From a virus (taxonomy: Duplodnaviria > Caudoviricetes): a stretch of 64,000 bases of DNA. The notes under the pieces were generated by a model. It was not told where the DNA came from, made no database searches, and saw nothing but the letters and a program-made list of their open reading frames with translations. How positions within the stretch are numbered: position 1 is the first letter of the stretch; every line of letters begins with the position of its first letter. The position numbers and the translations under genes are program-made. The DNA lies in the IMG/VR virus record IMGVR_UViG_3300014204_000111, positions 128,001-192,000 of that record. One strand, written 5' to 3'. Below, piece by piece: positions 15,572 through 39,885 of the stretch.

Positions 15572-15588
15572 GGGTAAACTATGATATG
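15572..15588 (+). promoter_or_regulatory. leaderless promoter GGG-TAAACT-N5-ATG
   Basis: recurrent motif heading the polyprotein operon. Confidence 0.7.
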
Positions 15589-16776
15589 CCTATCAGACAA
15601 ATTGTATCAGCAGGAACTAGATATAACCCAGGAGATTATTTTTCTCCATCTCTGAACACGCCAGAAGTTATCAATTCTATTCAACAAGTTCATAATAATG
15701 CCTTACAATCTCAAGGTAAAGTAGATTCTATAAGAAATTCTACTTTTACAGTTCCAGAAGAACACTTAAATAGAGTGAGAACTTTAATGTCTCTTCAAAA
15801 TCATTGGAGAGAAGCTGTACAGAGAATTGCTAGAAACTCTAAAAATGGTCAAATAGACCCAAGATATTTACATGCTATAGGCAAAGTATTAAATGGTTCC
15901 TTGGAGCAAAAATTAATGAATCCTGGCGAACAATTAGCTAAAACGCCTGGTTATAATTCTATTTATAATCATATGTTTGGTGTCTTTGCTGGTAAAGGTC
16001 AAATGTTAAGAGACGAGGGACATATGGCGAAAGTTTTAGATGATGAAATTAAGACATACAAACCACAACAAGTAACAGTACAACAAGCTTTTGGTGGACA
16101 ACATCCATTTCCAGAGTTTGCTCATTTAGAATCAACACCCGAAGCTAAAGTTGGTAAAGATTTTTTGAATCTTTTATCTACTCCTGTTTCTCCAGAGGCG
16201 GCAGAACTAATGAATGTAAGACGCTCAGATATGCAATCAATAGGAACTACTAGCAAAACTCTTGCTAATATGGGACTTTCTGCTTTTGGTAATGTTGCTA
16301 AACCAGGCCAATTTGCTAAAAGTGTAAGATTAGTTAGACGTTCACTCTTTACTATTAATGATTTGATGTTATATGACCCAAATAGAGCTATGGTAGAAAT
16401 TAAAAAATTGTGTGATGAAAATATTCCTCAAGAATTACATAGTCAATTTAAATTAAAAGAAATTCGTCAATTAAAAAAGGCTATTCAAGCAATATATGCT
16501 TTTAAAAATAGTACTGTACCAGTTGACCTTTTAAAAGCATGGGTAACAACTCAAACACCTATAGATATTAATGCATTACCTGAAAAAAAATATAATGAAC
16601 TTAATTCTCCTTGGAATGATGACCACGAACATTCTGCTATTAAAACTTATGTAGAAAAATTTCCAGATAGTGCTTTTATTGATGTTCTTTTATTTAGACT
16701 AGCTCTTGATGATTATGTCTCAAATAAAAAACAAGTATCAGAAGCTAATATGGAAGTTGGAGGATTAGATGAATAA
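15586..16776 (+). CDS. hypothetical protein, possibly internal virion protein
   Basis: 396 aa; FAKS, LKKA, LLKA motifs. Confidence 0.65.
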   Translation: MPIRQIVSAGTRYNPGDYFSPSLNTPEVINSIQQVHNNALQSQGKVDSIRNSTFTVPEEHLNRVRTLMSLQNHWREAVQRIARNSKNGQIDPRYLHAIGKVLNGSLEQKLMNPGEQLAKTPGYNSIYNHMFGVFAGKGQMLRDEGHMAKVLDDEIKTYKPQQVTVQQAFGGQHPFPEFAHLESTPEAKVGKDFLNLLSTPVSPEAAELMNVRRSDMQSIGTTSKTLANMGLSAFGNVAKPGQFAKSVRLVRRSLFTINDLMLYDPNRAMVEIKKLCDENIPQELHSQFKLKEIRQLKKAIQAIYAFKNSTVPVDLLKAWVTTQTPIDINALPEKKYNELNSPWNDDHEHSAIKTYVEKFPDSAFIDVLLFRLALDDYVSNKKQVSEANMEVGGLDE

Positions 16777-17170
16777 TCTTATTCTGCTCTATAGGAAACC
16801 ATTTGGTGACGAGTATGTTTCTGCGGATAGTCTTTTTGATGGTAAGTATAATATATATGAATTATTAGATATGTTTCCTGAAGCTTATCTTTTATTGGTT
16901 AATGATACAACAGAATATAACTTAGAACAAGTAATTAATAGAACTCGTTTAAATCAATATTTTAAAGTTGACGATAAAAATGAAATGCCTTGTGTTAATT
17001 GTAAGGCTGGAAATCCTGTAGATAGAGAATATTGCTATAAATGTGGTTATAAAAATAAATATTATAGTGTTACTAAATTTCTTAGTGACTCTTTTAGTAA
17101 AGCAATGTCTACAAAATATTATGTACTTTATGAATTTTGGGAAGACCAAAGACACAGAAGTATAATCTAA
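16769..17170 (+). CDS. zinc-ribbon protein
   Basis: CVNC...CYKCG. Confidence 0.65.
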   Translation: MNNLILLYRKPFGDEYVSADSLFDGKYNIYELLDMFPEAYLLLVNDTTEYNLEQVINRTRLNQYFKVDDKNEMPCVNCKAGNPVDREYCYKCGYKNKYYSVTKFLSDSFSKAMSTKYYVLYEFWEDQRHRSII

Positions 17171-17181
17171 GAGGATTGATA

Positions 17182-20100
17182 ATGACTCCAGAAGAATTAA
17201 TTGCTGCTAGACAATCTGTTCTTGACTCTTTACAAACATTTAGAAAAGAGAATAATCTTAGTCCGGTTTTAGACCCTAGGGGAGAGACTCCAGAAACTAG
17301 AAACACGCATAATATACAAAATATTTACCAACAAACACGTTATGGGCAAGAATATAGACATCCAGATAATCCATTTTTCCCTCCTGCTAATGAAGAAGAT
17401 TTTGGTCATGGAGGATTTGCTCCAGCATTAACACCAGAAGAAGAAGAGAAAATAAATATAAATGATACTTCTGAAACAGATTTACCTAATAATAATAGTA
17501 ATTTTTTATTTCCACAAGAATCTGTCAATCCTGAGATAAATAAAAAATGGAACGAGTACCAAAATAATATAAAAACAAGTAATATAGCTAAAATACATCG
17601 TTTAAACAAAAAACCATATGAACATCCTGATGAAACAATGTATCTAGGTGGAGAAAACTGGTCTCATGGAGGAATAAAAGATTTTATTCAACCATTAGAT
17701 GAAGGTATTTCCTCTTTATTTGATAAAATTACTTTTTCTAGAGATAATATAGAGAGAAACAAAGCAATAACAGAAAAATCTCCTCGATTTAATTCTAAAA
17801 AATTAATGCCAGAAACAGCTAATGCCTGGAGTAATTTTATAACTTCTCTTAAAATTCCTCATGGCGGAGATAATAATATTAATTTAAAAGAATTATTGAA
17901 AGAGACGGGATATGTTCACGGTCAATTAAATCCTGAAACAAAAGAAATATCTTGGAATGCAATACCTGAAAAAAAAGCGTGGACTCATAGTGATTTAACT
18001 AGAGAAATACCAGGAATAGTTTTAGGTGGTATACAAGGTATTGTACATCCTAAAACAAAAAAAGAACATTTAAATATTTCTTGGGTTGGTACTCCAGAAC
18101 ATTTAAGAAATCAAGGATTTGCTACTACATTAGAAACAGAAGCACATAAATTAGCAAAACAATCTGGATATGGAGGGCTATATTCTGATGAACAATTACA
18201 TCCTGAATTTACAAAACCAATTCATCAAAAACTAGGTAAACCATATACTCATTGGGGTAAAGAAGAATATTTCGGACATGGCGGAATGAAAGAAGATTAC
18301 ACTCATGTAGGTAATTATATAGGAGAAGTATTCAAACAACATCCAGATAGGAATATAGCTATTACACGCTTAAAAGATGAAGGTGTTATTAGTGGTAATC
18401 CTTCTTCTGGAAAAGATAAACAAGTATACTCTTTAAATACATTTTTACATCCTGAAACAGGCGATATTCAGCGTTTTAGAGGTGGAGTGCTTAAAGTAGT
18501 TCATCCTAATCAAGGTAGATATGCACAAGATGCTATGTTGGAAGAAGTTACTTCTTCTCAATTATATCCTAATGTAACTGTACCTGTTCATGCATATGAT
18601 AATCATAATTATAATTGGGCAATTGCGGATAAAGTAAAGCCTTTAATTTCTGGGTCAAGAGAGTATATTTTTGGGCAAGACCCAGATATGACAAGTTCAC
18701 AAAAATATGATGCAAATCGAAGAATAGAAGAAGGACAATCAAAATTAGAGGATTATTTAAATCGTTCTAGTCCAGAATTTTTACAAGAAATTTCTAAGAT
18801 AGGTGTTAAACCAGCAGAAACAGAGTGGGCTGCTAATTGGGGTATAACACCTGTTAGAAATGAACAAGGAAATGTTGTTAGAGACCCAAGAACCAAAAGA
18901 ACTCTTAAGAAGTTAGTCTTATTAGATTCTTCAAGAGCTGGACTAAATAAAGCTGTTCCTACTCCAGAAGAGATGATGAACACTATGTATGGACAAACTT
19001 TTGAAAAACTCCAAGAATTACAATTAATTGGTAAAAAACCTCTTGGAGAAGGAATGAGAAGAGTAGTATATCCTACTGCTAATCCAGGTATTGTTGCTAA
19101 AAGAGCAAAAATAAGTCCATCTGGTAAGGCTCATGTAGGAATGAACAATAATGGTGATGAAAGAAATAAATATTTAACTTTAAAAAATCAAGGATTAGAT
19201 AAACATGTAGCCGAAGTTTATGGATTAGTTCCTATTAAAGATAATAACATTCTTTTGCAAGAAAGAGTGCGTCCAATAGATATGGGAATTAAAGATGACG
19301 ATAAAATTTATGAAAAATATAACAAGCTTATTTCACCAGATATGCAAGATTTTTTTACTAATAGATTAGGAATTAATGATATTCATCCAGGAAATATGGG
19401 GATTAAAAAAGATAAAGAGACTGGAGAAAAATATCCTGTAGCTATTGATATTCCTAATAATATGGGTCATGGTGGAGAGAAATATGTTGGTCGAGATTAT
19501 GATAAAGTTTTAGAATGGCTAGAGAATACTCCGCGTGATGAAGTTACGGCACAATTAAAACCATTAGGTAGTGGTAGACATAGAGCAGTATATGCTTTTC
19601 CTAATAAATTTGCTAAAGAGCAATTTGGAGATATTTATCCAGAAATTGTATATAAAGACCCTGTGGCGTATCAAGGAACTCCTGCTAACGAAAGAGAAAT
19701 GAGAAATTGGCAACAATTAAAAGAACAGGGGAAGGCAGAATTAGCCGCTCCTGTTGTTGCACAAGCAAGATTAAAAGGTGGATATAGAGTAGGTATTTTA
19801 CAGAGAAGAATTAATCCTTTTCATGGTGATAAAGCCTTTGGTCAAAATACTCCGTGGGAAAGAGATGAAGAATTCACAAACGCAGGACTTAAAGATAGAG
19901 TTGGTTTTAATTTTGGTTTAACTAGAGTAATGCCAGATGGTTCATTAGGACAAAAAAGAACAGTGCAACATGATATAGCAGGTGCTCTTAACAAGGCAAT
20001 TAATGATTATGATGAAGTTGGAAATTTAATTAGAAATTCTAAACTAGAACAATTCAGTTCAATGCTCAAATTTATGGGACGAGAAGGTAAAGATAGAAGG

Positions 20101-23064
20101 GTTGGAACTTTAGACCATAAAATTGCTCAAAATTTATTAGGCAAAACTTATGCAGATTTTCTTAAAGTTAAACCAATAGTATTTAAAATTCCTATGGCAA
20201 ATAGTTGGGAACCTAACGCGAACAACATGGAGTATGAAAATTTTATGAATAAATATAAGGGACAAGAACTTGTTGTTCCAACTTTAGCTTCTTTTCATAC
20301 AAATGATAATAAGGTTATCAATATTCAACCTAAAGTAAATCCATTTAGGTCAGAAAAACAAATGATGCGGACTTTAACTTCTGATAGAGAGAATGAACTT
20401 TATGGAAAAACTGGATTACATGATTTAGGTTATCATAATTTAGCTAATACTAAAATAACAGATAATGGAGTATTAACCGACCATAATTCTGTAAGACCGT
20501 TTGATTATGTACATGGTGGAGATAAAAAGATTAGTTATGATACCAAGGGGCGTTTTATAAACTCTGGTGTTATGAGAGAAGTTCATCAATCTGCATTAAA
20601 TCCAAATCATGTAGTAAAAATTCCTTATGGAAGAGATGGAGAAGAGAATAATAGGGCAGAACGTGCTAGATATTTGAAATTAAAAAAATTAGGATTAACA
20701 GGAACTGGAGATTTAGAAAAAGATTTGACTATTGATATTCATGGTTTTGACCCTGAATCAGGTAGAAGTGTTGCTGAAAAAGCATATCCTATTCCGGGTT
20801 ATTTAGCAGAGTCAATATCTAGAGATTTAAGAACTGGGGGTAAAGCTGAGAATTTCCCTGAAACACTAAAAGATAGGGTACTACAATTACGGGAAATAAC
20901 GCGCAATCCTATGAATAGAAATATAAGTGATTTACATGGAAGTAATGCAATGTTTAATTCTCCATATAAAGGAGACTTCAATAATGAAGATGAATTTGTT
21001 AATTTTGCATCAAAACATTTAGTAACTGTAGATTTCAATGCAGGACATGATGGAGATAAAAATTCTTTATCTGAATTATTAAAAACTACTAAATATGTAT
21101 ATGGAGAGTTAAATCCTAAAACTAAGGCTATTAATTGGAATTCTATTGACCCAGTTGATGCTCTACCATTTAATCAGTTTACTAAGGAAAGTCCCCGTAT
21201 ATTATTGACCAATAGGTATGGTTATATACATCCTGAAACTAAGCAAGAGCATCTTACTATTTCTTGGGTTGGAGTTCCAGAAAAAATGAGAAAAAAGGGT
21301 TTTGCTACCGCATTAGAAACTGAAGCACATAAGTTAGCCAAACAGTCTGGATATGGAGGATTGTATTCTACACATCAAAATCATCCAGAGGCTACCAATT
21401 CTATTCATCAAAAATTAGGCAAAGTTATACAAGATAAAGAAGGTGCTGAATTTTTCAATAAAAGTAGAGAATATCATTGGCCTCTTGACCCTCTTGACCC
21501 TTCTTTGCCAACTAAACAGCCAATTACGGATATTAGTGCTTTACGTCCAGAATTTGCACAAGCAATTACAGAATTATTTAAACAAGCTAAACAACACGGA
21601 TATGATTTATATATTAGAGAAACATTTAGAACTAGACCTCGCCAAGATGAACTAAATAAGGAATGGCATGCTGGTCAAACTGGTTATGCACCTGATATTT
21701 ATGATGAACGTGGTAATTTAAATATTGATGATGCTAATTTTGCTCATGGACAAGGATTAGCTGCTGACATAGGAATTAAAGGATATGAAGAGAATGAAAC
21801 ACCTATTCACCATCAATTACATAAATTGCTTTTTAATATTAATCCTCAAATTATATCAGATAAGGTAATCCAGGGCGATGAAAATCATTATGAAGCATCA
21901 GACCAATATAGACAAAGTGTTGAAGTAGATTTAACTAAATCTCCATTTTATACTGAATATGTAAAGCGTTATGCTAATCCTACTCCGCAAGAATTGGATA
22001 AACCAGGAACTCAATTGCCAGAACAAAGTATGTTAAAAAGTATATTCGAAGCATTTGGTGTCGTTAAGGCTCTTTATTCTGGCCCAGACGATTCTTATGC
22101 ATATAGAGAAGGAGAAAATCCTCATCTAGATAATTCAAGAGCAACACTAGAAGCTATTAAAAATACTAAACTAGGTAAAAGAAGTAATTTTACAATTAAA
22201 AAACAATCAACATCTCCTCAAGTGTCGTTATCTCAATCTCCAGTTGTAACTCAACCAAGCCCTACTTTGTCTCAAGTAAATTTTACGTCACCTCAGAAAA
22301 TAGCTCCTCAATTATCACCTGATTTAGCTAAAGTTGCCACTGGATATAGTGATATATTAAGTAAATTAAGAGAACAACCAACTAGAAGTATGCCTCGACA
22401 AACAGATACATCAGGTGGATATGAATCTCCTATTCTTCCTAAACCTTCTCAGTTAGGTATGAGTGTACCTATGAGTCAATCTAAATTAAGAGATACTGGT
22501 CAAGGTTATACAGATAAACCTGGGGATAGAAGTCCAATTGTTCATCAATTAGGACAGAATCTTTTTGGAGAGACAGAATCTCAACCTAAAAATCTTAATT
22601 TATTCGGAGAATCATTTCCAGAGATACCTTCAACTCAAGAAACACAACCTAATGTTGGTTCTTTATTTGATGCTTCTTCACCATCTTTATTTGACTCTAA
22701 TACTATTCAAAATATGAGATATGGAGAAGCTGATATTCAATTAAAGAGAGAGAAAGAACAAGAAGCTATAAGACAAGCTCAACTTGAAGAACAAAAACAA
22801 CAAGAACTTCAAAGTAGACAAGCTCAAATACAATCAATTTTTAATAAAAATCCTCGTGATGTTGGAGGATTTGCCTATGATAAACTTAAAGAAGAGAATA
22901 AATTAGGTGGATTTGGAGGTATTTTAGCTCAAATAGCTGATAAAATTATTGGCCCTGCAACAGCTCCTCTTGGTGGCTTCAGCTTCGAAGAACAAAGAGC
23001 TAAAAATATGCTTGCTCAAGAAAAAAGAAATTTAGCAAATGAAATTAAAAAACGTCAAATATAG
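17182..23064 (+). CDS. multi-enzyme polyprotein: GNAT, 5 kinase-fold modules, GNAT, M15 peptidase, low-complexity tail
   Basis: GAGGA RBS before ATG 17182; GNAT motif A (LRNQGFAT, MRKKGFAT); kinase motifs (GEG..VVY, VAK, DIHPGN, ID); M15 motifs (R-R-RQ, HGQGLAAD, DENH). Confidence 0.75.
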   Translation: MTPEELIAARQSVLDSLQTFRKENNLSPVLDPRGETPETRNTHNIQNIYQQTRYGQEYRHPDNPFFPPANEEDFGHGGFAPALTPEEEEKININDTSETDLPNNNSNFLFPQESVNPEINKKWNEYQNNIKTSNIAKIHRLNKKPYEHPDETMYLGGENWSHGGIKDFIQPLDEGISSLFDKITFSRDNIERNKAITEKSPRFNSKKLMPETANAWSNFITSLKIPHGGDNNINLKELLKETGYVHGQLNPETKEISWNAIPEKKAWTHSDLTREIPGIVLGGIQGIVHPKTKKEHLNISWVGTPEHLRNQGFATTLETEAHKLAKQSGYGGLYSDEQLHPEFTKPIHQKLGKPYTHWGKEEYFGHGGMKEDYTHVGNYIGEVFKQHPDRNIAITRLKDEGVISGNPSSGKDKQVYSLNTFLHPETGDIQRFRGGVLKVVHPNQGRYAQDAMLEEVTSSQLYPNVTVPVHAYDNHNYNWAIADKVKPLISGSREYIFGQDPDMTSSQKYDANRRIEEGQSKLEDYLNRSSPEFLQEISKIGVKPAETEWAANWGITPVRNEQGNVVRDPRTKRTLKKLVLLDSSRAGLNKAVPTPEEMMNTMYGQTFEKLQELQLIGKKPLGEGMRRVVYPTANPGIVAKRAKISPSGKAHVGMNNNGDERNKYLTLKNQGLDKHVAEVYGLVPIKDNNILLQERVRPIDMGIKDDDKIYEKYNKLISPDMQDFFTNRLGINDIHPGNMGIKKDKETGEKYPVAIDIPNNMGHGGEKYVGRDYDKVLEWLENTPRDEVTAQLKPLGSGRHRAVYAFPNKFAKEQFGDIYPEIVYKDPVAYQGTPANEREMRNWQQLKEQGKAELAAPVVAQARLKGGYRVGILQRRINPFHGDKAFGQNTPWERDEEFTNAGLKDRVGFNFGLTRVMPDGSLGQKRTVQHDIAGALNKAINDYDEVGNLIRNSKLEQFSSMLKFMGREGKDRRVGTLDHKIAQNLLGKTYADFLKVKPIVFKIPMANSWEPNANNMEYENFMNKYKGQELVVPTLASFHTNDNKVINIQPKVNPFRSEKQMMRTLTSDRENELYGKTGLHDLGYHNLANTKITDNGVLTDHNSVRPFDYVHGGDKKISYDTKGRFINSGVMREVHQSALNPNHVVKIPYGRDGEENNRAERARYLKLKKLGLTGTGDLEKDLTIDIHGFDPESGRSVAEKAYPIPGYLAESISRDLRTGGKAENFPETLKDRVLQLREITRNPMNRNISDLHGSNAMFNSPYKGDFNNEDEFVNFASKHLVTVDFNAGHDGDKNSLSELLKTTKYVYGELNPKTKAINWNSIDPVDALPFNQFTKESPRILLTNRYGYIHPETKQEHLTISWVGVPEKMRKKGFATALETEAHKLAKQSGYGGLYSTHQNHPEATNSIHQKLGKVIQDKEGAEFFNKSREYHWPLDPLDPSLPTKQPITDISALRPEFAQAITELFKQAKQHGYDLYIRETFRTRPRQDELNKEWHAGQTGYAPDIYDERGNLNIDDANFAHGQGLAADIGIKGYEENETPIHHQLHKLLFNINPQIISDKVIQGDENHYEASDQYRQSVEVDLTKSPFYTEYVKRYANPTPQELDKPGTQLPEQSMLKSIFEAFGVVKALYSGPDDSYAYREGENPHLDNSRATLEAIKNTKLGKRSNFTIKKQSTSPQVSLSQSPVVTQPSPTLSQVNFTSPQKIAPQLSPDLAKVATGYSDILSKLREQPTRSMPRQTDTSGGYESPILPKPSQLGMSVPMSQSKLRDTGQGYTDKPGDRSPIVHQLGQNLFGETESQPKNLNLFGESFPEIPSTQETQPNVGSLFDASSPSLFDSNTIQNMRYGEADIQLKREKEQEAIRQAQLEEQKQQELQSRQAQIQSIFNKNPRDVGGFAYDKLKEENKLGGFGGILAQIADKIIGPATAPLGGFSFEEQRAKNMLAQEKRNLANEIKKRQI
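17872..21423 (+). repeat. intragenic duplication of the GNAT module (about 17872-18240 and 21064-21423)
   Basis: shared strings such as LETEAHKLAKQSGYGGLYS, ISWVG-PE and IHQKLGK. Confidence 0.9.
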
Positions 23065-24529
23065 TATCAGAAACATGAAATGTAGATAGACAGAGAGACG
23101 ATACAATATCATCGAATCCTGTTCTTGGCTTATATTTAATATTACCACTATCTGTTGTTTCCGCTCTATAACCCTTGAGTTCTTTTTTTATCTCTGGAAT
23201 ATCCCATAATGCTAAAGCTTCTGAAGCTAATTTGACTCTTAATTTTTCAATCATTTCATTTTTATTTTGATTAGTAAATTTGAGACCTTTAATTACTATT
23301 GATACACCATATTTATCTTTTAATCTTTTAGCTACTTCTCTTGGAACAGATGAACCTTCTCCAGTTGCGTCTATAATTACTTTTAATTTTCTTTTACCAT
23401 TATGTTGTCTAAATATAAAATCAGTAATTCTCTCTATATTCTCATCGTCTCCAACTTGAGTATATCTTTGGAATCCTACCATTTTATAATCCCCAGTTAA
23501 TGCTGTACAAACTGTATAGTCATGTAATCTAGCATAGTCAATACCAATGGTAATTTCTTCGTTCGGAGCTGGGGTATAAAATTGACTTTTTGTTTCTCCG
23601 TATTCTATCCCCTTTTTGAACTCTACAGGAAACCAAATATCCTCATTAAACGAAAATACATCTCCCGCGATAGTATCAAACTTAGCTTCGTACTCTCTTG
23701 CAAAAATAGCTCTCGAATATGGAGTTCCTGTAGATTCGGCCTTTCTTTTCTCTTCATAATACTCAGAGATATCAGCAAAAGGATTCTCTAGAATATGCAT
23801 TCTAAATCCTCTCGCTCTTAATCTTGCTATCTTACTTGCTGCTTGATATGCTGTAATATCTCCAGACTTAAACATCTCTCTAATCTTATGTTCATCTTCT
23901 TCTGCTAATTGAAATCTCTCTGCAAAAAAGTTTATCTCTCTCGGAGAACTAATAGCAAACAATCTTCCCATATTATTTTCACGGGCAAGAGATGGTTTGA
24001 TTAAGTTAAAAGCGTCATCTTTAAGAATTGCAGCTTCGTCTATAACTACTAAATCAGCACTTTTACCAATTAAAGAGTCAGGATTATCTCCAGATAAACA
24101 AGTTAAAGTACTATGTTCAGAACCCATAGATGTACTTAAATGCATATCTTGTCTTGTATTTGAGCCAGAAACTTTGATGCTACGCAAGAAGTCACTTTTA
24201 ACAAAAGCAGTCCAAACTGTATCAAAAACAATTTTGGCTAACTGGTAAAAAGGAGCTACTAAAAATATCTTTCTGTTAGGTAAACAAAGTTCTTCTAATA
24301 CTCTTATAGCAGCAGTTTGAGATTTACCACTTCCACGAGAAGCAGTAATATACATTTCTTTTGCAGGACACATAAGAAGTTTTGTTTGTTTGTCAAATGG
24401 CACGTATTCTTCGCCAAATGACTCCCACAACTTCATCCTGTCCTCTCCTAGCCCTAAAGCTTCATCTCTATCTGTTAGTGGTGTTTTGTTTAAAAGTGCT
24501 CTAGGATTACTCGTCAGTGTGTTCTTCAA
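23045..24529 (-). CDS. terL: terminase large subunit
   Basis: Walker A ASRGSGKS, Walker B VVIDEAA, FAREYEAKF, nuclease IGIDYAR..D, DATGEG, DDIVSS. Confidence 0.93.
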   Translation of the reverse strand: MKNTLTSNPRALLNKTPLTDRDEALGLGEDRMKLWESFGEEYVPFDKQTKLLMCPAKEMYITASRGSGKSQTAAIRVLEELCLPNRKIFLVAPFYQLAKIVFDTVWTAFVKSDFLRSIKVSGSNTRQDMHLSTSMGSEHSTLTCLSGDNPDSLIGKSADLVVIDEAAILKDDAFNLIKPSLARENNMGRLFAISSPREINFFAERFQLAEEDEHKIREMFKSGDITAYQAASKIARLRARGFRMHILENPFADISEYYEEKRKAESTGTPYSRAIFAREYEAKFDTIAGDVFSFNEDIWFPVEFKKGIEYGETKSQFYTPAPNEEITIGIDYARLHDYTVCTALTGDYKMVGFQRYTQVGDDENIERITDFIFRQHNGKRKLKVIIDATGEGSSVPREVAKRLKDKYGVSIVIKGLKFTNQNKNEMIEKLRVKLASEALALWDIPEIKKELKGYRAETTDSGNIKYKPRTGFDDIVSSLCLSTFHVSDTIFDVF

Positions 24530-25238
24530 CTAATTCTTCCTCTAATATTAATTCATCTAATATTCCAGATTCAAAGAAAGTTATATCAATTTCTTGATTT
24601 TCTTCACTGTTAATATCTGTATTACTATCTATTTCTGCTTCATAACCTTCTTGGTTAACATCAAAATTATTTCTAAACTTTTCTCTTAAATTTTTATTAA
24701 GAGAGTCCATATATTTTAATTGTCCACTCTTTTGATGTTGTACAAGAATAGTTTTATCTTGTTTAAAACCATGTAATTCACTCTGAGAACCAATTGATTG
24801 TAAAACTACTTGTTTACATTTACTTACTACACCAAAAAATTTGTCTATAGGTAATGCAAGAACTTCTTTTTGCTCAAAAGGCAAAGAATCGTATATAGCT
24901 CCCTCTTTTAGTCTCTTTATTCCTTCTGCTCTAGTTCCTAATAAATATTCTATAGTAGCCCATTCCGAAGAGGCAACAGCTTCTGCTCTAGATAAAAGAA
25001 TTTGTCTTTGGTCAACACTTTCCTTCATTGTAGCTTCTTTTGAAGTTAACTCTAACGCTGCTTTATAATATCTTTTAACTTTGTTATAATCCCATTTAAT
25101 ATTTTTAGATTCTAAATTTTTTTGAATTTCAATAATACTACTGCAACCGTGAGAAATTGCGTCTACAATGAGACGAATATTCTTAGAAGTCTCTTCAATT
25201 GAAGGATTTCTGCTAACTAATTGGTTATTATCACTCAT
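24507..25238 (-). CDS. probable terminase small subunit
   Basis: directly upstream of terL, N-terminal HTH-like helices, acidic C-terminus. Confidence 0.55.
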   Translation of the reverse strand: MSDNNQLVSRNPSIEETSKNIRLIVDAISHGCSSIIEIQKNLESKNIKWDYNKVKRYYKAALELTSKEATMKESVDQRQILLSRAEAVASSEWATIEYLLGTRAEGIKRLKEGAIYDSLPFEQKEVLALPIDKFFGVVSKCKQVVLQSIGSQSELHGFKQDKTILVQHQKSGQLKYMDSLNKNLREKFRNNFDVNQEGYEAEIDSNTDINSEENQEIDITFFESGILDELILEEELVEEHTDE

Positions 25239-25280
25239 AAACTTATGTTACCCACTTAGAAAGGGTAAGATATGATGTTG
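25236..25280. promoter_or_regulatory. back-to-back divergent promoters (minus GGG-TAACAT-N6-ATG; plus GGG-TAAGAT)
   Basis: motifs at 25245-25253 (-) and 25263-25271 (+). Confidence 0.7.
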
Positions 25281-25344
25281 ATAATAAACTTACTTACGAG
25301 ACAACAAGAATTGTTAACAAAAAATACGATGGAGCTAGCATTAA

Positions 25345-28197: not shown

Positions 28198-28208
28198 GGA
28201 ATAAATAA

Positions 28209-28412
28209 ATGGAGAAAAGCACGGAAGAAATTTTAAAAGAAGATGATACTTCTATGGGAACTGGAGAAGTTAATCCTCATAGTCCAACTAGAAGATTTAC
28301 TTGTTTTAAAAGAAAGCAAGAATTTAATATGTCAATGCAAGTTGGCTCTTTAACTCCACCAATTTGCGGAGTTCCTGAAAATGTGCCTACAGAAGTTATT
28401 CCAAGTGAATAA
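28209..28412 (+). CDS. 67-aa protein containing a copy of a capsid N-terminal segment
   Basis: AGGA RBS; QEFNMSMQVGSLTPPICGVP versus capsid QGFNVSAQVGSLTAPIIGSP. Confidence 0.75.
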   Translation: MEKSTEEILKEDDTSMGTGEVNPHSPTRRFTCFKRKQEFNMSMQVGSLTPPICGVPENVPTEVIPSE

Positions 28413-28417
28413 AAATG

Positions 28418-28434
28418 GGGTAAAATAGGATATG
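28418..28434 (+). promoter_or_regulatory. leaderless promoter GGG-TAAAAT-N5-ATG
   Basis: recurrent motif. Confidence 0.7.
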
Positions 28435-29040
28435 ACCGAAGTATATAACGAACAAGATTTAGGGCATGGAGATAATTTTTATTGGCCTAAATTACATAGA
28501 TTTTTACATCAAGTTAAATGGTGCAAACAAACACACGGAGAAGATTCGTTTGATTACGAACAACAAATTGTAAAACTTGCACAATTAGTAGCTGCTATGG
28601 GTGATATGAGAGATTTACCTATAGAAGAGTTATATCATTATTTCCACGGTCATCACAAAGCTGATATTAATAATGCTGTTGAACTAATTCAAACTCAAGA
28701 TAAGATGATGTCTCCTAGAGAAGGAAATCTTGAAGAAAGATATAATAATAAATGGGTTGTTAGAGATACAGAGAATTATATGGATGGATTTGGTAGACCT
28801 TGGTTATCTCAAGGATATAACCAATCTACTGATTTAAAAAGAGAACAAGTATTAGATTATAACACCCCTGTAGGTCTTCATAGACCAGATGCAGATACAT
28901 ATATTGAAAGTTATCCCGAACATCCTCATAATGAAAAATGGGAAGAGAAATTAAAGCAGAATAGCTACCTCCGTATGTTGTTCACCAAAGAAGAACGTGC
29001 CGAGGCTAAACGTAATATGGAAAAATACGGAGAACAATAA
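28432..29040 (+). CDS. putative internal head protein
   Basis: between portal and protease; LGHG motif at residues 10-13. Confidence 0.6.
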   Translation: MTEVYNEQDLGHGDNFYWPKLHRFLHQVKWCKQTHGEDSFDYEQQIVKLAQLVAAMGDMRDLPIEELYHYFHGHHKADINNAVELIQTQDKMMSPREGNLEERYNNKWVVRDTENYMDGFGRPWLSQGYNQSTDLKREQVLDYNTPVGLHRPDADTYIESYPEHPHNEKWEEKLKQNSYLRMLFTKEERAEAKRNMEKYGEQ

Positions 29041-29921
29041 TGTCAACAGCAGAGCAAGTGATGCAACAAGCCGAAACCTATAAGTTATTCAAAGGTATTA
29101 TTAATAATTTTGAAGAAGATTTGGTACAACATGGTTATGAGCTTGATGAACAAGATAAAGTAAGAGTAATTAACTTGGTTATTGATACGACCCAGAAGCT
29201 TTTTAAAGGGTCTACAGATGAAGAGTTAATTGATTTTCTTGGTCGTTATGATAGAAATATTAGAGCAACTGCTCTTAATACATTAAATAATGAATATGAA
29301 CAAGAAGCTTTAACTAAATCTATGCAAGAATTGACATATCACCCAGACCATGTTTACGCTCATCAAGTAGAAGAGTCTGGAAAAGATGTTTATCCAGAAA
29401 TGCTTAAGAGCAGATGGAATGAGTTGCCTGACGAACTTAAAAACCATATGGAACAATATCATATGGAAAATAGATTATGGCACACTCATACAGATAATTT
29501 GGCTGACCCATTGATTTTTGGTAAATCAGTTGAAACTAATATGGTTGAACGTAACTATATTCATGAAATCGCTCACCGTCTTGACGAAAAAGCTGTAAGA
29601 GGCGAAGAGGCAGATGATGAAGAGATTTCAGTATATTCTGAGCTTTATAAAGCTGAAATTTATCCTGGTATGGTTGCCAGTGATGGTGTGGTTATTACTC
29701 CTGAGTTAGCTGAACATATGAATGGTATTCACGGCCCAAGATATCAAGCTCATCCTTTAGAACTTCCTATGATTGGCCCTTCTGGTTCATTTGTTGAATT
29801 TGAGCATTTAAAGAAATCAATGCCTGATAGACCTACATCATTTAAAACTGAGAATGAAGTTTCTATTTTGAAGCAAGAACTTTTTAATCTCGGCTACGAG
29901 ACTCAAAAAAAAAATAGCTAA
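29040..29921 (+). CDS. putative internal head/core protein, acidic
   Basis: repeated LFKG, LTKS, MLKS, FGKS, LYKA, LKKS; ends just after an A10 run. Confidence 0.65.
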   Translation: MSTAEQVMQQAETYKLFKGIINNFEEDLVQHGYELDEQDKVRVINLVIDTTQKLFKGSTDEELIDFLGRYDRNIRATALNTLNNEYEQEALTKSMQELTYHPDHVYAHQVEESGKDVYPEMLKSRWNELPDELKNHMEQYHMENRLWHTHTDNLADPLIFGKSVETNMVERNYIHEIAHRLDEKAVRGEEADDEEISVYSELYKAEIYPGMVASDGVVITPELAEHMNGIHGPRYQAHPLELPMIGPSGSFVEFEHLKKSMPDRPTSFKTENEVSILKQELFNLGYETQKKNS

Positions 29922-31050
29922 ATCCAGTCCTAATCCTGGCTGGTCAGATGATACTTACGAAGAAGACGATGATTCTGCACGTCAAGAGGCAGAAGAGTTA
30001 AGTTTAGGTCAAGATACTCCTTCTCAAGCAACTAAAAGATTTCTTCCAGCAGAAGGTCATGCTGATGGACAACATCCATATTTAAGTAACCCAATTCATT
30101 CTTCATTCTCTCATTTACAACAATATCTTCCTGAACTTAATCAGCATTTAAATGCATACTTACAGCAAAATCCTAATTTTGACCCAAAGAATATACTTGC
30201 AGTTAGAGGAGCGGCATTAGAAGCTCTTCATCATCATCATACTCTAAATCACCTAAATCCTACGCCTCCTCCGAATATACCTCAAATAGTTCAACAAGCA
30301 GGAGCGCTTATCCAAGGTCATCTTGATTCAGAAAAGAAAAATGTACAACAATCTTCACAATCTTCATTAAGTAATCAAACTTGGGATAAGAATGATACAA
30401 CAGATATTTTCGGTAAACCTACTTGGTTCCCACAACAAAAAGGTCACGGAGGTATGGGAGAATTTTCTTCAAACTATATAGCTCCTTCAATGAATAAGTC
30501 TCTTAATTCTTTTGTCCAAATATCTATGCTTAAAGGTATGCTAGATAATTTACACACTAAACATAATTACGGACACGGAGGAGAAATAGATGTATTAAGC
30601 GGAAAAACTGTTAATCCAAAAGATTTACCACAACCTGTTCAACCAATGCCATCTTCTCCTATTGCTGTACCTAATGACCCTTGGAAAGAGGATAGGGAAG
30701 CACAAAAGTATGAGAAAAAGACTTTGCCACCTCATTCAGGAGATGGTTGGGGTTTAGCAGATGATATTAGAGGAAATTTAACTGATGAACAAGAGATGGA
30801 TGATGCTAATAATGACCCTAATAATGGACTAGCTCCAGAATTTAGGACAAAAACTGTTCAATCAGACCCTAAGCAATCTCAAAGAATACAATCATTTCCT
30901 GGCAATTTATATCCTAGTAATCCATCTATGGTTCCTTCGACTCCTGCACCACAAGTATATAATCCCAATGTTAAACCAAGTAATGTAGATATACTCCCCG
31001 GATTAAGAGCAATGATAGAAAGTGCTAAAGTAGGACAGGCTGGTAAATAA
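29915..31050 (+). CDS. probable frameshifted extension of 29040-29921 (includes track ORF 30454-31050)
   Basis: +1 frame open from 29872 with no ATG/GTG/TTG before 30454; coding-like sequence with IAKS, KGHG, MNKS, YGHG. Confidence 0.6.
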
Positions 31051-32309
31051 TGCAATTATTTAATGAAATTATTCAGGACTTAATCGGAGAACATGTATTT
31101 AATTGTTCTTGTGTTTCTGTGGAAACTAAGAAAACACTCATAACCTTATATTCAGATATGGTTGATAGCTTTGTAATGGGTGAACTTGGTAAATTTAAAA
31201 TAACACAACAGATTTTTAAAGAATTTTTAAAAAATCAACTTCCCGAAGTTTTTGAAAAAGCTGACGCTCTTAGATTTGAAAGAGAAGCACAAGAAGATGT
31301 TGCTCAAATTATAAATAAATCTATTATTCAGCAGAAAATTCCTCAATTTGAACAAACACATCAAGCATATTCTAAATGTTTATATATGAACCCATTTATT
31401 TTTGAAATGAAAGAAGGTTTTTACTTTAATAAACAAGGAGAACCATATATATATTTAGAAATTCCTGATATTAAAGAACATATTCTCCATATAATAGATG
31501 ATAGAAATAAATTTCCTAAAATTAAAGCAAGTTGGTTATTTTGTGATGATATAACTCCAGAACTGGTACATAGATTTCATATGACAACTTATTCAATTGC
31601 GCTTATGATTAGGGACATTACGCATCATTTACAAGTAATGCATCCAGAAGATATTATTGCTAAACTATCTTCTGTGTTTATTCCAATTCCCCAAGGATTA
31701 AGTGTTTATTATCAAAATGAACAAGGACAATTATCTTTGCCATCATCACTTTACGCTACAGAATTAAAAGAAAGAGGTTTAGATAAAATTCCTTCGATTG
31801 GTGTATACGACCAATTAGTTAATGATAAAAATGCATTTTTTGATTTTATTAAACAAAACAAATTAGCATCAGGTATTAAACTAGATTTAATTGGAGGAAG
31901 TTTATTTGGAGACTTTGGGTTATTAGGACACCCAAGTTATTTAGACCAAAAATTACCATATATTCATAATATACTATTACCTATGTTTTTAAATACTTAT
32001 AAAAGAGAATCAATTAAACCTCAAATGTTACAAGCTCTAGAATCTAAATATCAAGAGTGTTTAGCAGAAATTCCGCCAGGATTACTAGAAAATGATAAAG
32101 TAGTATCTGTTCTTATCTCTTTATTACAAGAGGTTCAAGCTTTAGTTGTTTCTGGTGTAGGAGCAGCATTATATGCTATTACTCAGTATGGTGGATTTAA
32201 CGAAATAACAGCAAGAATAGGTTTGTGTAGTAATACGACTTTATATGAATCTTTATCAGATACAGGAGTTAAAACACTATGTTATCTTAAAGGAGTAAGT
32301 CGTGATTAA
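31050..32309 (+). CDS. hypothetical head-module protein
   Basis: 419 aa, coupled. Confidence 0.7.
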   Translation: MQLFNEIIQDLIGEHVFNCSCVSVETKKTLITLYSDMVDSFVMGELGKFKITQQIFKEFLKNQLPEVFEKADALRFEREAQEDVAQIINKSIIQQKIPQFEQTHQAYSKCLYMNPFIFEMKEGFYFNKQGEPYIYLEIPDIKEHILHIIDDRNKFPKIKASWLFCDDITPELVHRFHMTTYSIALMIRDITHHLQVMHPEDIIAKLSSVFIPIPQGLSVYYQNEQGQLSLPSSLYATELKERGLDKIPSIGVYDQLVNDKNAFFDFIKQNKLASGIKLDLIGGSLFGDFGLLGHPSYLDQKLPYIHNILLPMFLNTYKRESIKPQMLQALESKYQECLAEIPPGLLENDKVVSVLISLLQEVQALVVSGVGAALYAITQYGGFNEITARIGLCSNTTLYESLSDTGVKTLCYLKGVSRD

Positions 32310-32922
32310 TCTACAGGGAATCAAAATTCTTCCTATAAAAGAAAAACCATCTACTTTAATTATTTCATCAAGTATATATGTAGATAAATTAATTGCTCTT
32401 CATCTTGGTTTTGAAGAGGTAATTAAACAATATGGTAATTTAACAAACTTAATAAGACTAGAAGTAGAACAATACAGAAGTGATTTAGGTCATTCTAATT
32501 TAATTTCAATTGACTTACCTTTATCAGTATATCATGCAAATTTCTCTTTACTCTCTGTTTTACAAGTTGCTACGCTAATTATCGAACAAGATGAACATGA
32601 TTTTGCTTCTCTTAATCCTTGTACGATGCAACAAATTAAAGAGAATAAAAGAATAATGGCTGATTTATATGCATTAATGCATTTACCAGATATTAATTTT
32701 ATTTATTTTAGTGAAGGTTCTAACCATATGTTAACTACTCCTATTAAGCCAGTTAATGCTCCTGCAAATTGGGTAGATAAATTAGATAAAATTTTAGAAG
32801 AATATGAAGAATGGCAAAGTTCACAAGACCAAGAAACAAAACAATTATTTGGCGTAGAAACAAGTAATGGATTTTTTGATAATATAGCAAAACAAGAAGT
32901 ACAATTCTATCAAAATAAATAA
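32302..32922 (+). CDS. hypothetical head-module protein
   Basis: GTG start after AAGGAG. Confidence 0.7.
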   Translation: MINLQGIKILPIKEKPSTLIISSSIYVDKLIALHLGFEEVIKQYGNLTNLIRLEVEQYRSDLGHSNLISIDLPLSVYHANFSLLSVLQVATLIIEQDEHDFASLNPCTMQQIKENKRIMADLYALMHLPDINFIYFSEGSNHMLTTPIKPVNAPANWVDKLDKILEEYEEWQSSQDQETKQLFGVETSNGFFDNIAKQEVQFYQNK

Positions 32923-32928
32923 AAGTGT

Positions 32929-32945
32929 GGGTAAAATACTGTATG
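32929..32945 (+). promoter_or_regulatory. leaderless promoter GGG-TAAAAT-N5-ATG
   Basis: recurrent motif; moves the protease start to 32943. Confidence 0.7.
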
Positions 32946-34922
32946 GCTAATAAAACCTTTATAACTGGTGAAAATGTTAAAAGTCTTGTAAAGATGGAAT
33001 ATGACGGAGATGTTATCTTTGAAGGTATATTCGCATCTAATGATAGAGATATTCAAGGCGATATTATTGATAAAACAATGCTTAAGCAAATGAATAATAA
33101 TCTTAACACTGGTGCGCCTGTTTTCTTAAATCACTTTTATCATAGACCGGCTGTTGGTAAAGTTTTAAAATCAGAATATATGGAAGACCCAAATACAGGA
33201 AGAGCTTGGATTTGGGGGCGTGGTGTTGTTGATTCTGCTGATGCTGATTTTAAAAGACAAGTAGCAGATGGTAGATATAAATATATCTCGGTTGGTGGAC
33301 ATTTAGATGATTATGAAATGGAAAAGTCTGCCGATGGGAAATCTACTCGTCGTTGTAAAAGTGGAAAAGCTCTTGAGATATCTTTAACCGCAGTTCCTAT
33401 TAATATATCTGCTGGTATGACATTAGCAAAAGGTCAAATTAACGATGAAATTACAGACCAAATTATAGAAAATAATAACTTAATGAAAGCAATCTTCTCA
33501 ATGGACGAGGATGAGCAAGGTAAATTAACTAAACTAAATTATCACGAAGTAGAATTTATCCCCATATCGGAGCAAAGTATGTTGCAAAAAGGTGAAGTTG
33601 GAGAATTCAAGAAGTTAGACGAAAAACCTAGCAAATCAAGTATTGAATTCGGACATGGTACAAAAGTTGGAGAAGAAGACTTAGAAAAGTATTATAATCC
33701 AAAGGTTTCTGGCTTTATAACCAGCAAAGACGTAGACCCTCTTAATGTTTCTGACGAACATTCTCAAGAATTCTTAAGCAAACATAAGACAAGTGTTATT
33801 GAATCAAATGAAAAACATGATGATTTTGGTTTTGTTGATAAAAACAGCGAATCTTTCTTAAATAAAACTTCGATTTCTGACCCCGCTGCTCCTAACAAGT
33901 ATGACCCAGGTAACTCTGTAGATAAAAATTCTAACTCTTGGATTCTTTCTCAGGCTAAAACATTTGTTTCTGGTTTAGATTCTATGCAAAAAGCAGTATT
34001 AGTTGATTTAATTTTCCACGATTTTAATACTGATAAATTATATGCAACATCTGGAGAAAGCCAGCCAAACGTCATTCACCGTTTATTACATCAAAAGAAT
34101 TCTTATGCTAAAGCTGGTGGATTTTCTAATATTATTGGTCAAGAACTTACAGCATTATTAAAGTCTCTTGATTGGCGTAATTCTGATAACAATATGTATG
34201 ATAGATTAGTATTAGACCATATTCTTGGCCCAAATCATATTGAAGAGGTAAAAGATTATTTAACTAAGTCTATGTATGGTTTTGCTGGAGACAAAGACCC
34301 TAATGAACCAGATGGCGATGAAATGGGACAAGACCCTTCAATGGGTGGTTCTCCTATGGGACAAGACCCAAGTATGGGTGGAGCACCTATGGGACAAGAC
34401 CCTTCAATGGGTGGAGCACCTGCAATGCCCGCTCCTGGTGCAGAAGGTACTGACCCAAGTATGGGCGGTGGCGAAGACCCAACAATAGGCGCAGTTTCTC
34501 AAATTGTTGAAAAATATGCTCAGCAAGCAGGAATTGACCCCAATTCTATTCAACAACTATTACAAGGTGGAGATGTAACTGGCGCAGCTAAGGCCGTTAT
34601 TCAAGCATTACAGCAATCTAATCCTGACTTAGCTAATCAAATGTTAGATGAACTAAACCAAACCCTACAGGGTGGTGGTTCTGAACAAGCAACACCTGGA
34701 GGTGGTGAAGCACCTGGCGCAGCTCCCCAATCAATGATGATGGGTAAATCAATTAATCCAGAAGAAGCTGTTGCTGCATATAGAGAAGCGAGAAAAGAAC
34801 AGTTTACAAAGTCAAGAGTTTTCTCTGAACAACCTGCTCAATCTCGATATAATAGTAAACCAGCCAGCGGCGCTGACTTGGCAATGGCCTCTTGGATAGG
34901 TCAGTATAATATCGAAAGATAA
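32943..34922 (+). CDS. HK97-type prohead protease fused to a scaffold-like region
   Basis: FEGIFAS..RDIQGDII, FLNH (His), AVGKV, YISVGG (Ser), LEISLTAVP-N; long acidic low-complexity C-terminal part. Confidence 0.88.
   Translation: MANKTFITGENVKSLVKMEYDGDVIFEGIFASNDRDIQGDIIDKTMLKQMNNNLNTGAPVFLNHFYHRPAVGKVLKSEYMEDPNTGRAWIWGRGVVDSADADFKRQVADGRYKYISVGGHLDDYEMEKSADGKSTRRCKSGKALEISLTAVPINISAGMTLAKGQINDEITDQIIENNNLMKAIFSMDEDEQGKLTKLNYHEVEFIPISEQSMLQKGEVGEFKKLDEKPSKSSIEFGHGTKVGEEDLEKYYNPKVSGFITSKDVDPLNVSDEHSQEFLSKHKTSVIESNEKHDDFGFVDKNSESFLNKTSISDPAAPNKYDPGNSVDKNSNSWILSQAKTFVSGLDSMQKAVLVDLIFHDFNTDKLYATSGESQPNVIHRLLHQKNSYAKAGGFSNIIGQELTALLKSLDWRNSDNNMYDRLVLDHILGPNHIEEVKDYLTKSMYGFAGDKDPNEPDGDEMGQDPSMGGSPMGQDPSMGGAPMGQDPSMGGAPAMPAPGAEGTDPSMGGGEDPTIGAVSQIVEKYAQQAGIDPNSIQQLLQGGDVTGAAKAVIQALQQSNPDLANQMLDELNQTLQGGGSEQATPGGGEAPGAAPQSMMMGKSINPEEAVAAYREARKEQFTKSRVFSEQPAQSRYNSKPASGADLAMASWIGQYNIER
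34323..34421 (+). repeat. three tandem 33-bp repeats encoding MGQDPSMGG(S/A)P
   Basis: units start at 34323, 34356, 34389; looser copies follow. Confidence 0.9.
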
Positions 34923-34933
34923 GGAACTAAATA

Positions 34934-36214
34934 ATGAATCGTAGACAACCATTTGTGAAGAGCAATCAGAATTTCCAAAAAGCAGGAGATTTTCCTACTA
35001 CATGGGGAGATTCAGGGAGTGTTCCCGCTGATTACCAAACAGTGTATAATCCTGGGCAAGGCTTTAACGTCTCTGCTCAAGTAGGAAGTCTTACAGCTCC
35101 TATTATTGGTAGCCCTGGTGTTATCAACTCAATCGGTGGTAGAGACTTCTTATCAATTGATGTAACGCAAGAATATTTGCCTTATATCAACCAAGCGTCT
35201 TATTTGCGTAAGCACCACAGAGTCGTTCCTATGGACGGCCCAAGCAAGTATATTCCTAAGATTGCTGGCCCAGCAAAAGTGTATGCAACTGGTGAAGGTC
35301 AGGTTATGAGTCAAACCGTAATCCCAACCACAACTGTTGCGTTGATTGCAAAAGCAATGGCAGTTTCTTTCGCAATTCCTCGTGAAATCGCGGATGACTC
35401 TATCATCAATTTGCTTCCTGCAATTAGAGAACACTTAGTTGACCGTTTCGTTCTTGCAGAAGAAGAAGCCTTCTTATTAGGTGATGAAAACACTTTCGCT
35501 GGTAGTGGTAGCGTTCGTTCTATGTTTAACGGATTGAGTGTCGGTGGTGAGTATAACTCCCTTGGCTCTTCAGATGTTATGGCAAATAACGGTGCTGAAT
35601 TAATTAACGCCGCTGGAAACCCATTCTCAACTGAGCATGTTAACGAAGCTCTTGAGAAGTTGGACTTGCTAGGACAAAATCCTGACCATATTCTAGGTAT
35701 TATTTCTCGTAAGCATGCAAGAACCCTACGTGGTGACTCTACGCTTTTACGTCAATTAACTAACTTTGGCCCAAGCCCAACCTTTAGAACTGGTCGTATA
35801 GGCCAAATCTTTGGTGTTAACTTGGTTCAAACTAACTTGTTGAATCCTAATGCGATGGTTCCAAGTGATGATGGTCAATGGTGGGGCTTCTTGGGCTTTG
35901 GTTCTGAAACTCCCGTTGAAATGACAACTCCTGGTGGAAATGACCCTGACCTTTTAAGTGATTATGGTACTGGTAACAGAATCTATTCATATTATGGTTC
36001 AGAAGCTCTTGCTAAGGCGCATCAGACAACTCTTACTGAAGCTTTGTTTGTCCATAAGGATAGCGCAGTTATCGGTGATAGACAGAAATTGGAAATCGAA
36101 ATGTCTGCTCACACTCTATTAGCGGCTCGTTCGCTCTTGCTTGTGGCGCATGAGAGAATTGCATTTGCTTTACAATTACGTAGAGGTATTTGCAAGGTCA
36201 TCCAGTTGGGTTGA
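34934..36214 (+). CDS. major capsid protein (HK97 fold)
   Basis: GEG, IPREIADDSII, EEEAFLLGD, FNGL, GQIFGVNLV, ERIAF; follows the protease; terminator downstream. Confidence 0.92.
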   Translation: MNRRQPFVKSNQNFQKAGDFPTTWGDSGSVPADYQTVYNPGQGFNVSAQVGSLTAPIIGSPGVINSIGGRDFLSIDVTQEYLPYINQASYLRKHHRVVPMDGPSKYIPKIAGPAKVYATGEGQVMSQTVIPTTTVALIAKAMAVSFAIPREIADDSIINLLPAIREHLVDRFVLAEEEAFLLGDENTFAGSGSVRSMFNGLSVGGEYNSLGSSDVMANNGAELINAAGNPFSTEHVNEALEKLDLLGQNPDHILGIISRKHARTLRGDSTLLRQLTNFGPSPTFRTGRIGQIFGVNLVQTNLLNPNAMVPSDDGQWWGFLGFGSETPVEMTTPGGNDPDLLSDYGTGNRIYSYYGSEALAKAHQTTLTEALFVHKDSAVIGDRQKLEIEMSAHTLLAARSLLLVAHERIAFALQLRRGICKVIQLG

Positions 36215-36216
36215 TG

Positions 36217-36233
36217 CATGTATCATCTTACCC
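36217..36233 (-). promoter_or_regulatory. antisense-oriented GGG-TAAGAT-N5-ATG motif pointing into the capsid gene
   Basis: reverse complement of CATGTATCATCTTACCC. Confidence 0.4.
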
Positions 36234-36250
36234 ATTCCATCAGATTATTC

Positions 36251-36278
36251 AAGAGGCTGTTAAAAGCCTCTTTTTTTT
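36251..36278 (+). terminator. intrinsic terminator after the capsid gene
   Basis: AAGAGGCT-GTTAAA-AGCCTCTT followed by T run. Confidence 0.88.
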
Positions 36279-36319
36279 GGGTATATAGAGTATACGAAAA
36301 ATTATACAGGAGTATAACG

Positions 36320-39868: not shown

Positions 39869-39885
39869 GGGTAATATAGATTATG
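39869..39885 (+). promoter_or_regulatory. leaderless promoter GGG-TAATAT-N5-ATG
   Basis: recurrent motif. Confidence 0.7.

Follow-up and report, generated by a model that had tools for sequence, protein, structure and literature searches.

We describe a phage head-assembly region in which one S78-type protease may cut both the head proteins and a large neighboring multi-module protein at a common short signal. The region lies in a window of 64,000 nucleotides, bases 128001-192000 of the 220,861-bp record of an uncultured virus with direct terminal repeats (IMGVR_UViG_3300014204_000111), and the GC content of the window is ~31%. The signal consists of a hydrophobic residue at P3 (PHI), Lys at P1 and Gly, Ser or Ala at P1' (PHI-x-K-[G/S/A], hereafter the Lys form). 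Judged from the sequences, it is probably a shared processing code of the head proteins. The broader reading, to which we assign a probability of roughly 0.55, is that the protease would cut the Lys form in the head proteins and at the joints of a 1975-residue protein (the 17137 protein), and that sites with His at P1 would be cut as well. The generic His form is PHI-x-H-[G/S/A]; its variant PHI-x-H-G-G, rarer than the Lys form, sits at equivalent joints and possibly represents an unusual alternative to the Lys signal. Coordinates of genes and predicted joints are collected in Table 1.

A reading of the sequence alone had proposed a hydrophobic-x-[K/H]-[G/S/A] code shared across the head module, and every tetrapeptide that it listed was found in the proteins named. 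We assessed chance occurrence by shuffling each of the 336 proteins of the 221-kb genome individually, which preserves composition but not local structure, and counting motifs; the nine proteins from portal to capsid served as the head set. The head proteins are enriched in the Lys form (32 sites versus 13.3 expected, z 5.2, with 0 of 300 shuffles as high), whereas the other 326 proteins are at background (282 versus 280 expected). The decoy motifs PHI-x-K-[DEN], PHI-x-R-[GSA] and the reversed motif showed no enrichment in the head module by the same shuffle test. Ranked by Lys-form excess, the first two of the 336 proteins are a protein of no known family, protein X (7 sites versus 0.8 expected), and the protease-scaffold (11 versus 3.5).

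Three related phages with the same module (contigs L002/L009, L003/L004 and L006/L008) were obtained from capsid homologues and by searching a scaffold profile with full HMMER. Three homologues on short contigs (P0002, P0003 and P0017) are 58-81% identical. Comparison of the capsid and scaffold with 50,697 phage records by tblastn gave no match, as did an IMG/VR scan with the capsid protein, and word-index homolog searches with the 17137 protein and the scaffold returned only the queries themselves. In the three relatives, the Lys-form excess falls in the same two families, protein X and scaffold (p 5e-6 to 5e-4), with 11, 10 and 10 sites in X and with 10, 13 and 13 in the scaffold, where 2-3 are expected. 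Alignment columns that hold the Lys form in at least three of the four phages number 8 in the scaffold, 7 in X and 4 in the capsid, compared to 0-2 for each decoy. Two further decoys, PHI-x-K-[LIV] and PHI-x-E-[GSA], also lack column conservation; the latter occurs 3, 8, 2 and 7 times in the four scaffolds and shares no more than 2 columns, versus the 8 of the Lys form.

The pattern of variation within sites is informative. In an alignment of nine scaffold sequences, in which the Lys-form sites are kept across the homologues, P3, P2 and P1' vary inside their permitted sets and P1 is Lys, or twice Arg (VVRS, ILRS). One site, for example, reads LAKG, LAKA, IAKG, VSKG or LTKS depending on the homologue, and another LLKS, ILKG, LIKG, IAKA or MIKS. 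Such variation points to selection that acts on the motif and not on particular residues. Across 67 conserved sites there is no strong preference at P6-P4, P2 or P2'-P5'. Enrichment, same-column conservation in relatives and the presence of an S78-type protease together bear out the idea of a code shared across the head module, as far as the Lys form is concerned. The further claim that the motif lists the substrates of the protease did not hold, as the four-residue pattern is too loose: the protein encoded at 39883, an HNH endonuclease and for that reason not accepted as a substrate, has 5 sites versus 0.9 expected.

The enzyme is an HK97/S78-type serine prohead protease, based on profile matches of its relatives, its fold and its invariant residues. 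The gene sits between those for portal and capsid, with the capsid gene following it directly in each of the four phages, and the product consists of a protease (residues ~1-165) and a scaffold-like tail of ~480 residues. Over its first ~165 residues the protein can be aligned with 25 relatives, and 21 of these have a match to PF04586 (Peptidase_S78; best E 6.7e-17). The window protease itself scores below Pfam thresholds (17.2-17.5 bits on PF14550, for which the cut-off is 24) and has no PF04586 match. Four residues are invariant in 26 sequences (His64, Ser116, Asp36 and Glu145 in P0010 numbering; +6 in the window open reading frame, ORF), and the putative catalytic residues, assigned by position, are His64 and Ser116. 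The top three Protein Data Bank (PDB) matches of an AlphaFold2 model of the protease (pLDDT 86.4) are chains of T4 gp21 (5JBL; probability 1.00, TM 0.54-0.62).

The protease fold ends at about residue 155, and the predicted site LAK|G (33423-33434) lies inside a linker with pLDDT<50 (residues 156-166). Even in distant relatives PHI-x-K-[S/G/A] recurs after the protease fold. The tetrapeptides identified in the protease-scaffold are MEKS, LAKG, LMKA, LQKG, FGHG, MQKA, LLKS, LTKS, MGKS and FTKS, plus VLKS and YAKA.

The capsid protein has two predicted propeptide sites near its N-terminus, FVK|S at residues 7-10 (34952-34963) and FQK|A at residues 14-17 (34973-34984). F-x-K-[S/A/G] occurs at residues 7-10 in 8 of 8 homologues (seven with N-termini in the alignment, plus that of L006), and PHI-Q-K-A in five of the eight. 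The closest homologue, P0002 (81% identity), has a deletion of precisely those 7 residues that separate the two predicted cuts, as expected if both bonds are cleaved and the segment between them can be spared. The mature protein is predicted to begin at Ala17, or at Ser10 should cutting be confined to the first site. A third capsid tetrapeptide, IAKA, is an unlikely cleavage site because it is inside a conserved internal stretch of the mature protein.

Protein X is the most site-rich protein of the genome, with LFKG (twice), LTKS, MLKS, FGKS, LKKS and LYKA. It continues in the +1 frame as an extension (29872-31050) that contains IAKS, MNKS, MLKG, YGHG-G (30568-30579) and K-GHGG (30442-30456). 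The extension frame is open from 29872 and has no ATG, GTG or TTG before 30454 (194 codons), whereas each X ortholog of the relatives is one uninterrupted ORF (775 and 665 residues). Where the two frames overlap there are ten consecutive A (29905-29914), and the frame probably changes here, by slippage (programmed, giving short and long forms) or through a homopolymer assembly error. The extension shows no alignable similarity to the relatives.

The portal as a whole is not enriched in the Lys form (3 sites versus 3.5 expected). It has MNK|S at residue 762 (27628-27639; MNKSI), after a Gln-rich insertion. In the portals of the three relatives, [L/M/I]-x-K-S-I is found some 100 residues before the C-terminus, and the homologous position in the window portal reads IIKD (27166-27177). 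By this comparison, the ancestral Lys-form site has degraded to IIKD, and MNKSI is a new site after the insertion. The window portal is 950 residues long, compared to 705-714 in relatives, the surplus being the Gln-rich insertion and a long unique C-terminal tail (27166-27640, residues ~608-765).

Other proteins of the region have fewer sites. In the 396-residue protein, FAKS (16312-16323), LKKA (16471-16482) and LLKA (16528-16539) are kept in a three-phage alignment with only 34 identical columns. The 133-residue protein has one conserved site, FSK|A (17093-17104), in a column that reads FSKA, FEKS and FVKA in three phages. Based on these patterns, the portal and the 396- and 133-residue proteins are likely further substrates. 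The 419-residue protein contains INK|S (31311-31322), and its column 94 reads INKS, FRKN, FRKG and IFKG. In column 205 of the same family we found ISK|G (L004), ISK|A (L006), VSH|S (L002) and LQVM (window).

The 17137 protein contains two GNAT domains and a VanY-type wall peptidase identified by Pfam, as well as five kinase-like modules. Kinase-like modules at 18949-21045 (residues 605-1303) fold as minimal kinases. In the AlphaFold2 fold of a kinase module (residues 605-775), LNK|A and MGH|GG are in the disordered flanks, and a Foldseek comparison placed the bacterial effector kinases OspG and NleH first among PDB matches (probability 1.0 and 0.99; TM ~0.3-0.5). Six Lys-form sites are present in the protein, versus 8.2 expected at random, all of them outside recognized domain cores: three are at joints and three after the VanY domain. 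The joint ahead of the VanY module reads FNK|S here, LQK|A in L009 and YNK|A in L008, and the L004 ortholog, which has the VanY part only, begins exactly at the FNK|S joint. Each kinase module of the relatives terminates in PHI-x-K|[A/G]. The gene is beside those for terminase and portal in all four phages. The 1784-residue ortholog of L009 (L009:349-5703), which matches DUF5661, has at least four kinase-like modules, each starting after PHI-x-K|[A/G/S] with a repeated V/T-P-I-x-H-I-I-R.

No built-in processing peptidase (zincin-like MPTase) was identified in the 17137 protein by Pfam at E<=1 in ten fragments; structure-based searches did not cover every fragment. Since every joint carries the motif of the head protease and Pfam finds no built-in peptidase, the chain would be a genuine polyprotein, with the head protease as its processing enzyme.

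At many joints of this protein the Lys of the motif is replaced by His. PHI-G-H-G occurs 3 times in the 17137 protein and 3 times in the head proteins (0.1 expected in each) and 10 times genome-wide (~1.5 expected), and HGG occurs 6 times in the 17137 protein versus 0.3 expected. The five kinase modules of the window end 4-11 residues after an invariant V-x-x-D with K, H, K, H and H, whereas those of relatives all end with K. The GNAT duplication spans joint to joint in gap-free register: copy 1 runs from H-G|G to FGH|G, and copy 2 from H-D|G to FNK|S. That so many joints have converged on a single motif, with P3 still hydrophobic and P1' still small, argues for function rather than decay. We thus consider it plausible, though unproven, that the same prohead protease would cut at H|G-G, and lean somewhat towards this possibility. 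Not every His occurrence qualifies: FAHG at residue 1535 was rejected as a site because it is inside the VanY match and fits the zinc motif of that family (SxHxxGxAxD).

Two proteins encoded near the right end of the genome (L010:4002-5360 and L010:5435-5884; genome 216001-217883) have similar features. The first contains MGHGG, QHGG, FGHDGD and 7 Lys-form sites versus 1.8 expected, and the second FGHGG. From their motifs, these may be further head cargo.

Several observations weigh against cutting after His, or against the broader reading as a whole. The generic His form is not enriched in the nine head proteins (8 sites versus 5.8 expected) and was rejected as a code for this reason. At conserved sites of the scaffold, X and capsid, His never takes the place of Lys, although Arg does. 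The scaffold FGHG (33648-33659), which the sequence-only reading had placed among the sites, was also rejected: homologues have FGEG, FTGD, FGHG, FGEN, VHSQ, FGSG and KGPG, so that the column is FG-x-G with a free middle residue and is not supported as a His site. LGHG of the 202-residue protein (residues 10-13, 28459-28470) has L10 and H12 invariant in four phages (LGHG, LDHL, LAHG, LDHG), a pattern that would fit an N-terminal His-form site as well as a His with a structural or metal-binding role. The family occurs in all four phages with invariant His at 12, 22, 26, 69 and 75, and may be a metal-binding head protein. The His form is stricter than the Lys form, in that P1' and mostly P2' are Gly, and this could reflect a different recognizer or a hinge. 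HGG is absent from the 17137 orthologs of relatives (0 in 3767 residues), and relative to those of the other phages the window protease shows three conservative differences only (F/Y, S/A, I/V), with no change in specificity apparent. No S78-type protease is known to cut after His, and none was found in the papers searched. The phage is uncultured and we infer every cleavage event, none having been observed; similarly, we infer packaging of the 17137 protein into the head from gene position and motif alone.

Most of these observations would be accounted for if only the Lys (or Arg) form were the protease code, and the PHI-x-H-G-G joints were flexible hinges that keep the modules fused, or served in metal binding, docking or as the site of another enzyme. 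We consider this unlikely, although it is consistent with the lack of generic enrichment, the missing His at conserved sites, the FG-x-G column, the demand for an extra Gly, and the absence of the His form from relatives without a visible change in the protease. Random loss of Lys sites would not be expected to converge on one motif at 6-8 independent joints. In addition, the His form retains the hydrophobic P3 and small P1', follows the last kinase strand at the distance seen for the Lys form, and aligns exactly with FNKS in the two GNAT copies, and its PHI-G-H-G version exceeds expectation across the genome. The proposal of His at P1 survives in part. PHI-x-H-G-G replaces the Lys form at paralogous and orthologous joints of the 17137 protein, and one column of the 419-residue family reads K, K, H, but the scaffold FGHG and the LGHG of the 202-residue protein do not behave like Lys sites.

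It is improbable that the code is real for scaffold, X and capsid while the 17137 protein is not head cargo, its joints being cut elsewhere (for example by a trypsin-like enzyme of the host or another one of the phage, in the cytoplasm or once delivered) or left uncut. The protein has no targeting signal or virion evidence, and its Lys-form count is below random expectation. However, the gene position beside terminase and portal is kept in four phages, a wall peptidase is typical of injected proteins, the joints use the three-position motif of the scaffold, and the sites avoid folded cores. Very improbable, finally, is an enrichment that is unrelated to cleavage and merely follows from the composition or helical periodicity of scaffold-like proteins: scaffold proteins are helical and Lys/Ala-rich, and the shuffles ignore local structure, but same-spacing decoys are neither enriched nor conserved (the flat decoys led us to reject helical periodicity as a cause), P1' is often Gly, a helix breaker, and sites are in disordered linkers and at the capsid N-terminus.

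If one protease indeed serves all of these sites, processing could proceed as follows. In the assembled prohead, the protease would cut between Lys (P1; sometimes Arg) and Gly, Ser or Ala (P1'), with a hydrophobic residue at P3. Cutting at LAK|G would free the protease domain from its tail, and the scaffold tail and protein X would be chopped into pieces able to leave the shell. The capsid protein would lose a propeptide of 9 or 16 residues, so that the mature protein starts at Ser10 or Ala17, and the C-terminal tail of the portal would probably be trimmed. The 17137 protein would be cut at its module joints, and five minimal kinases, two acetyltransferases and the wall peptidase would be packed as separate cargo. 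The least certain step is at the many joints with hydrophobic-x-His|Gly-Gly, where the same enzyme might cut with protonated His as a weaker basic P1. More tentative still is the full scheme in which a two-form code with basic P1 dissects a capsid-packed polyprotein into about a dozen injected modules, including OspG-like kinases, with cutting after His perhaps slower or pH-dependent.

Similar codes occur in other systems. T4 gp21 recognizes L/I-x-E, and gp175/gp245 of phiKZ and SPN3US recognize S/A/G-x-E. Common to these phages and the one studied here is a three-position code with defined P3 and P1 that can be found by motif counting and recurs in the capsid, scaffold and portal proteins as well as in many internal or ejected proteins of the head; T4 gp21 also has the same protease fold (5JBL was the best structural match). 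In those phages, however, P1 is Glu, whereas here it is Lys, and PHI-x-E-[GSA] is neither enriched nor conserved. They also have many separate substrate genes, whereas the predicted substrates here include one very long multi-enzyme chain. Herpesvirus assemblin cuts at V/L/I-x-A|S. Its fold is distantly related and the hydrophobic P3 and small P1' are alike, but P1 is Ala instead of Lys (possibly His).

A close parallel is HK97, in which the capsid protein gp5 is cut at K103/S104 (PMC10275583). The protease described here resembles HK97 gp4 in its superfamily (recognized via relatives and fold), in the position of its gene between those for portal and capsid, in predicted cutting after Lys and before a small residue, and in having a C-terminal tail. 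Unlike in HK97, the scaffold is fused to the protease rather than to the capsid protein, and the predicted capsid propeptide has only 9-16 residues, compared to 103. The protease here also falls below Pfam thresholds, has many more predicted substrates and possibly accepts His at P1. The Lys form would thus be a further instance of HK97-family cutting, already known in kind; His at P1 would, if true, be new for the prohead proteases, and could give timed or pH-gated release.

The 17137 protein also resembles the phage polyvalent proteins, for which processing by built-in metallopeptidase domains has been proposed (Iyer et al., 2017; PMC5512222). Like these, it strings several unrelated effector domains (GNAT, kinase, wall peptidase) together in one large chain encoded beside virion structural genes, and polyvalent proteins are believed to be carried in the capsid and then injected (PMC5512222). 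It differs in that the joints carry the prohead-protease motif instead, and Pfam found no such peptidase domain. If the joints are cut, many host-modifying enzymes would be delivered from one gene, following the logic of RNA-virus polyproteins and unlike the self-processing proposed for polyvalent proteins. More generally, a code that can be read from sequence would allow one to predict, for a whole clade of uncultured jumbo phages, the termini of the mature capsid protein, the removal of the scaffold and the cargo of the head, and the motif would be a handle for loading foreign proteins into capsids.

Table 1. Genes and predicted joints of the head-assembly region (window coordinates; | marks the predicted scissile bond).
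Feature	Position	Strand	Remarks
396-residue protein	15586-16776	+	
133-residue protein	16769-17170	+	
1975-residue multi-module protein (17137 protein)	17137-23064	+	
Predicted joint FGH|G	17401-17412	+	
Predicted joint WSH|G	17659-17670	+	
Predicted joint IPH|G	17854-17865	+	
Predicted joint FGH|G	18271-18282	+	
Predicted joint LNK|A	18943-18954	+	
Predicted joint MGH|G	19462-19473	+	
Predicted joint LNK|A	19987-19998	+	
Predicted joint YVH|G	20506-20517	+	
Predicted joint AGH|D	~21040-21051	+	
Predicted joint FNK|S	21454-21465	+	
Predicted joint MLK|S	22030-22041	+	
Predicted joint VVK|A	22060-22071	+	
Large terminase	23045-24529	-	
Portal	25345-28197	+	PF04860
202-residue His-rich protein	28432-29040	+	
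Protein X (no known family)	29040-29921	+	continues in +1 frame to 31050
+1-frame continuation of protein X (extension)	29872-31050	+	
419-residue head-module protein	31050-32309	+	
206-residue protein	32302-32922	+	
665-residue protease-scaffold	32925-34922	+	PHROG head-protease matches
HK97-fold major capsid protein	34934-36214	+	PF05065
LAGLIDADG endonuclease	36218-37324	+	

A LAGLIDADG homing endonuclease is encoded directly after the capsid gene. The endonucleases at this position in relatives differ (LAGLIDADG in L006, HNH and a Mom-like protein in L002).

Two very large ORFs downstream of the head module, 42353-56005 (4550 residues) and 55992-62684 (2230 residues), are not enriched in the Lys form (14 sites versus 19 expected and 10 versus 10.3, respectively). 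The ORF that follows (62714-64000, extending to genome position 192138) encodes a 474-residue protein of no known family, with 7 Lys-form sites versus 1.7 expected.

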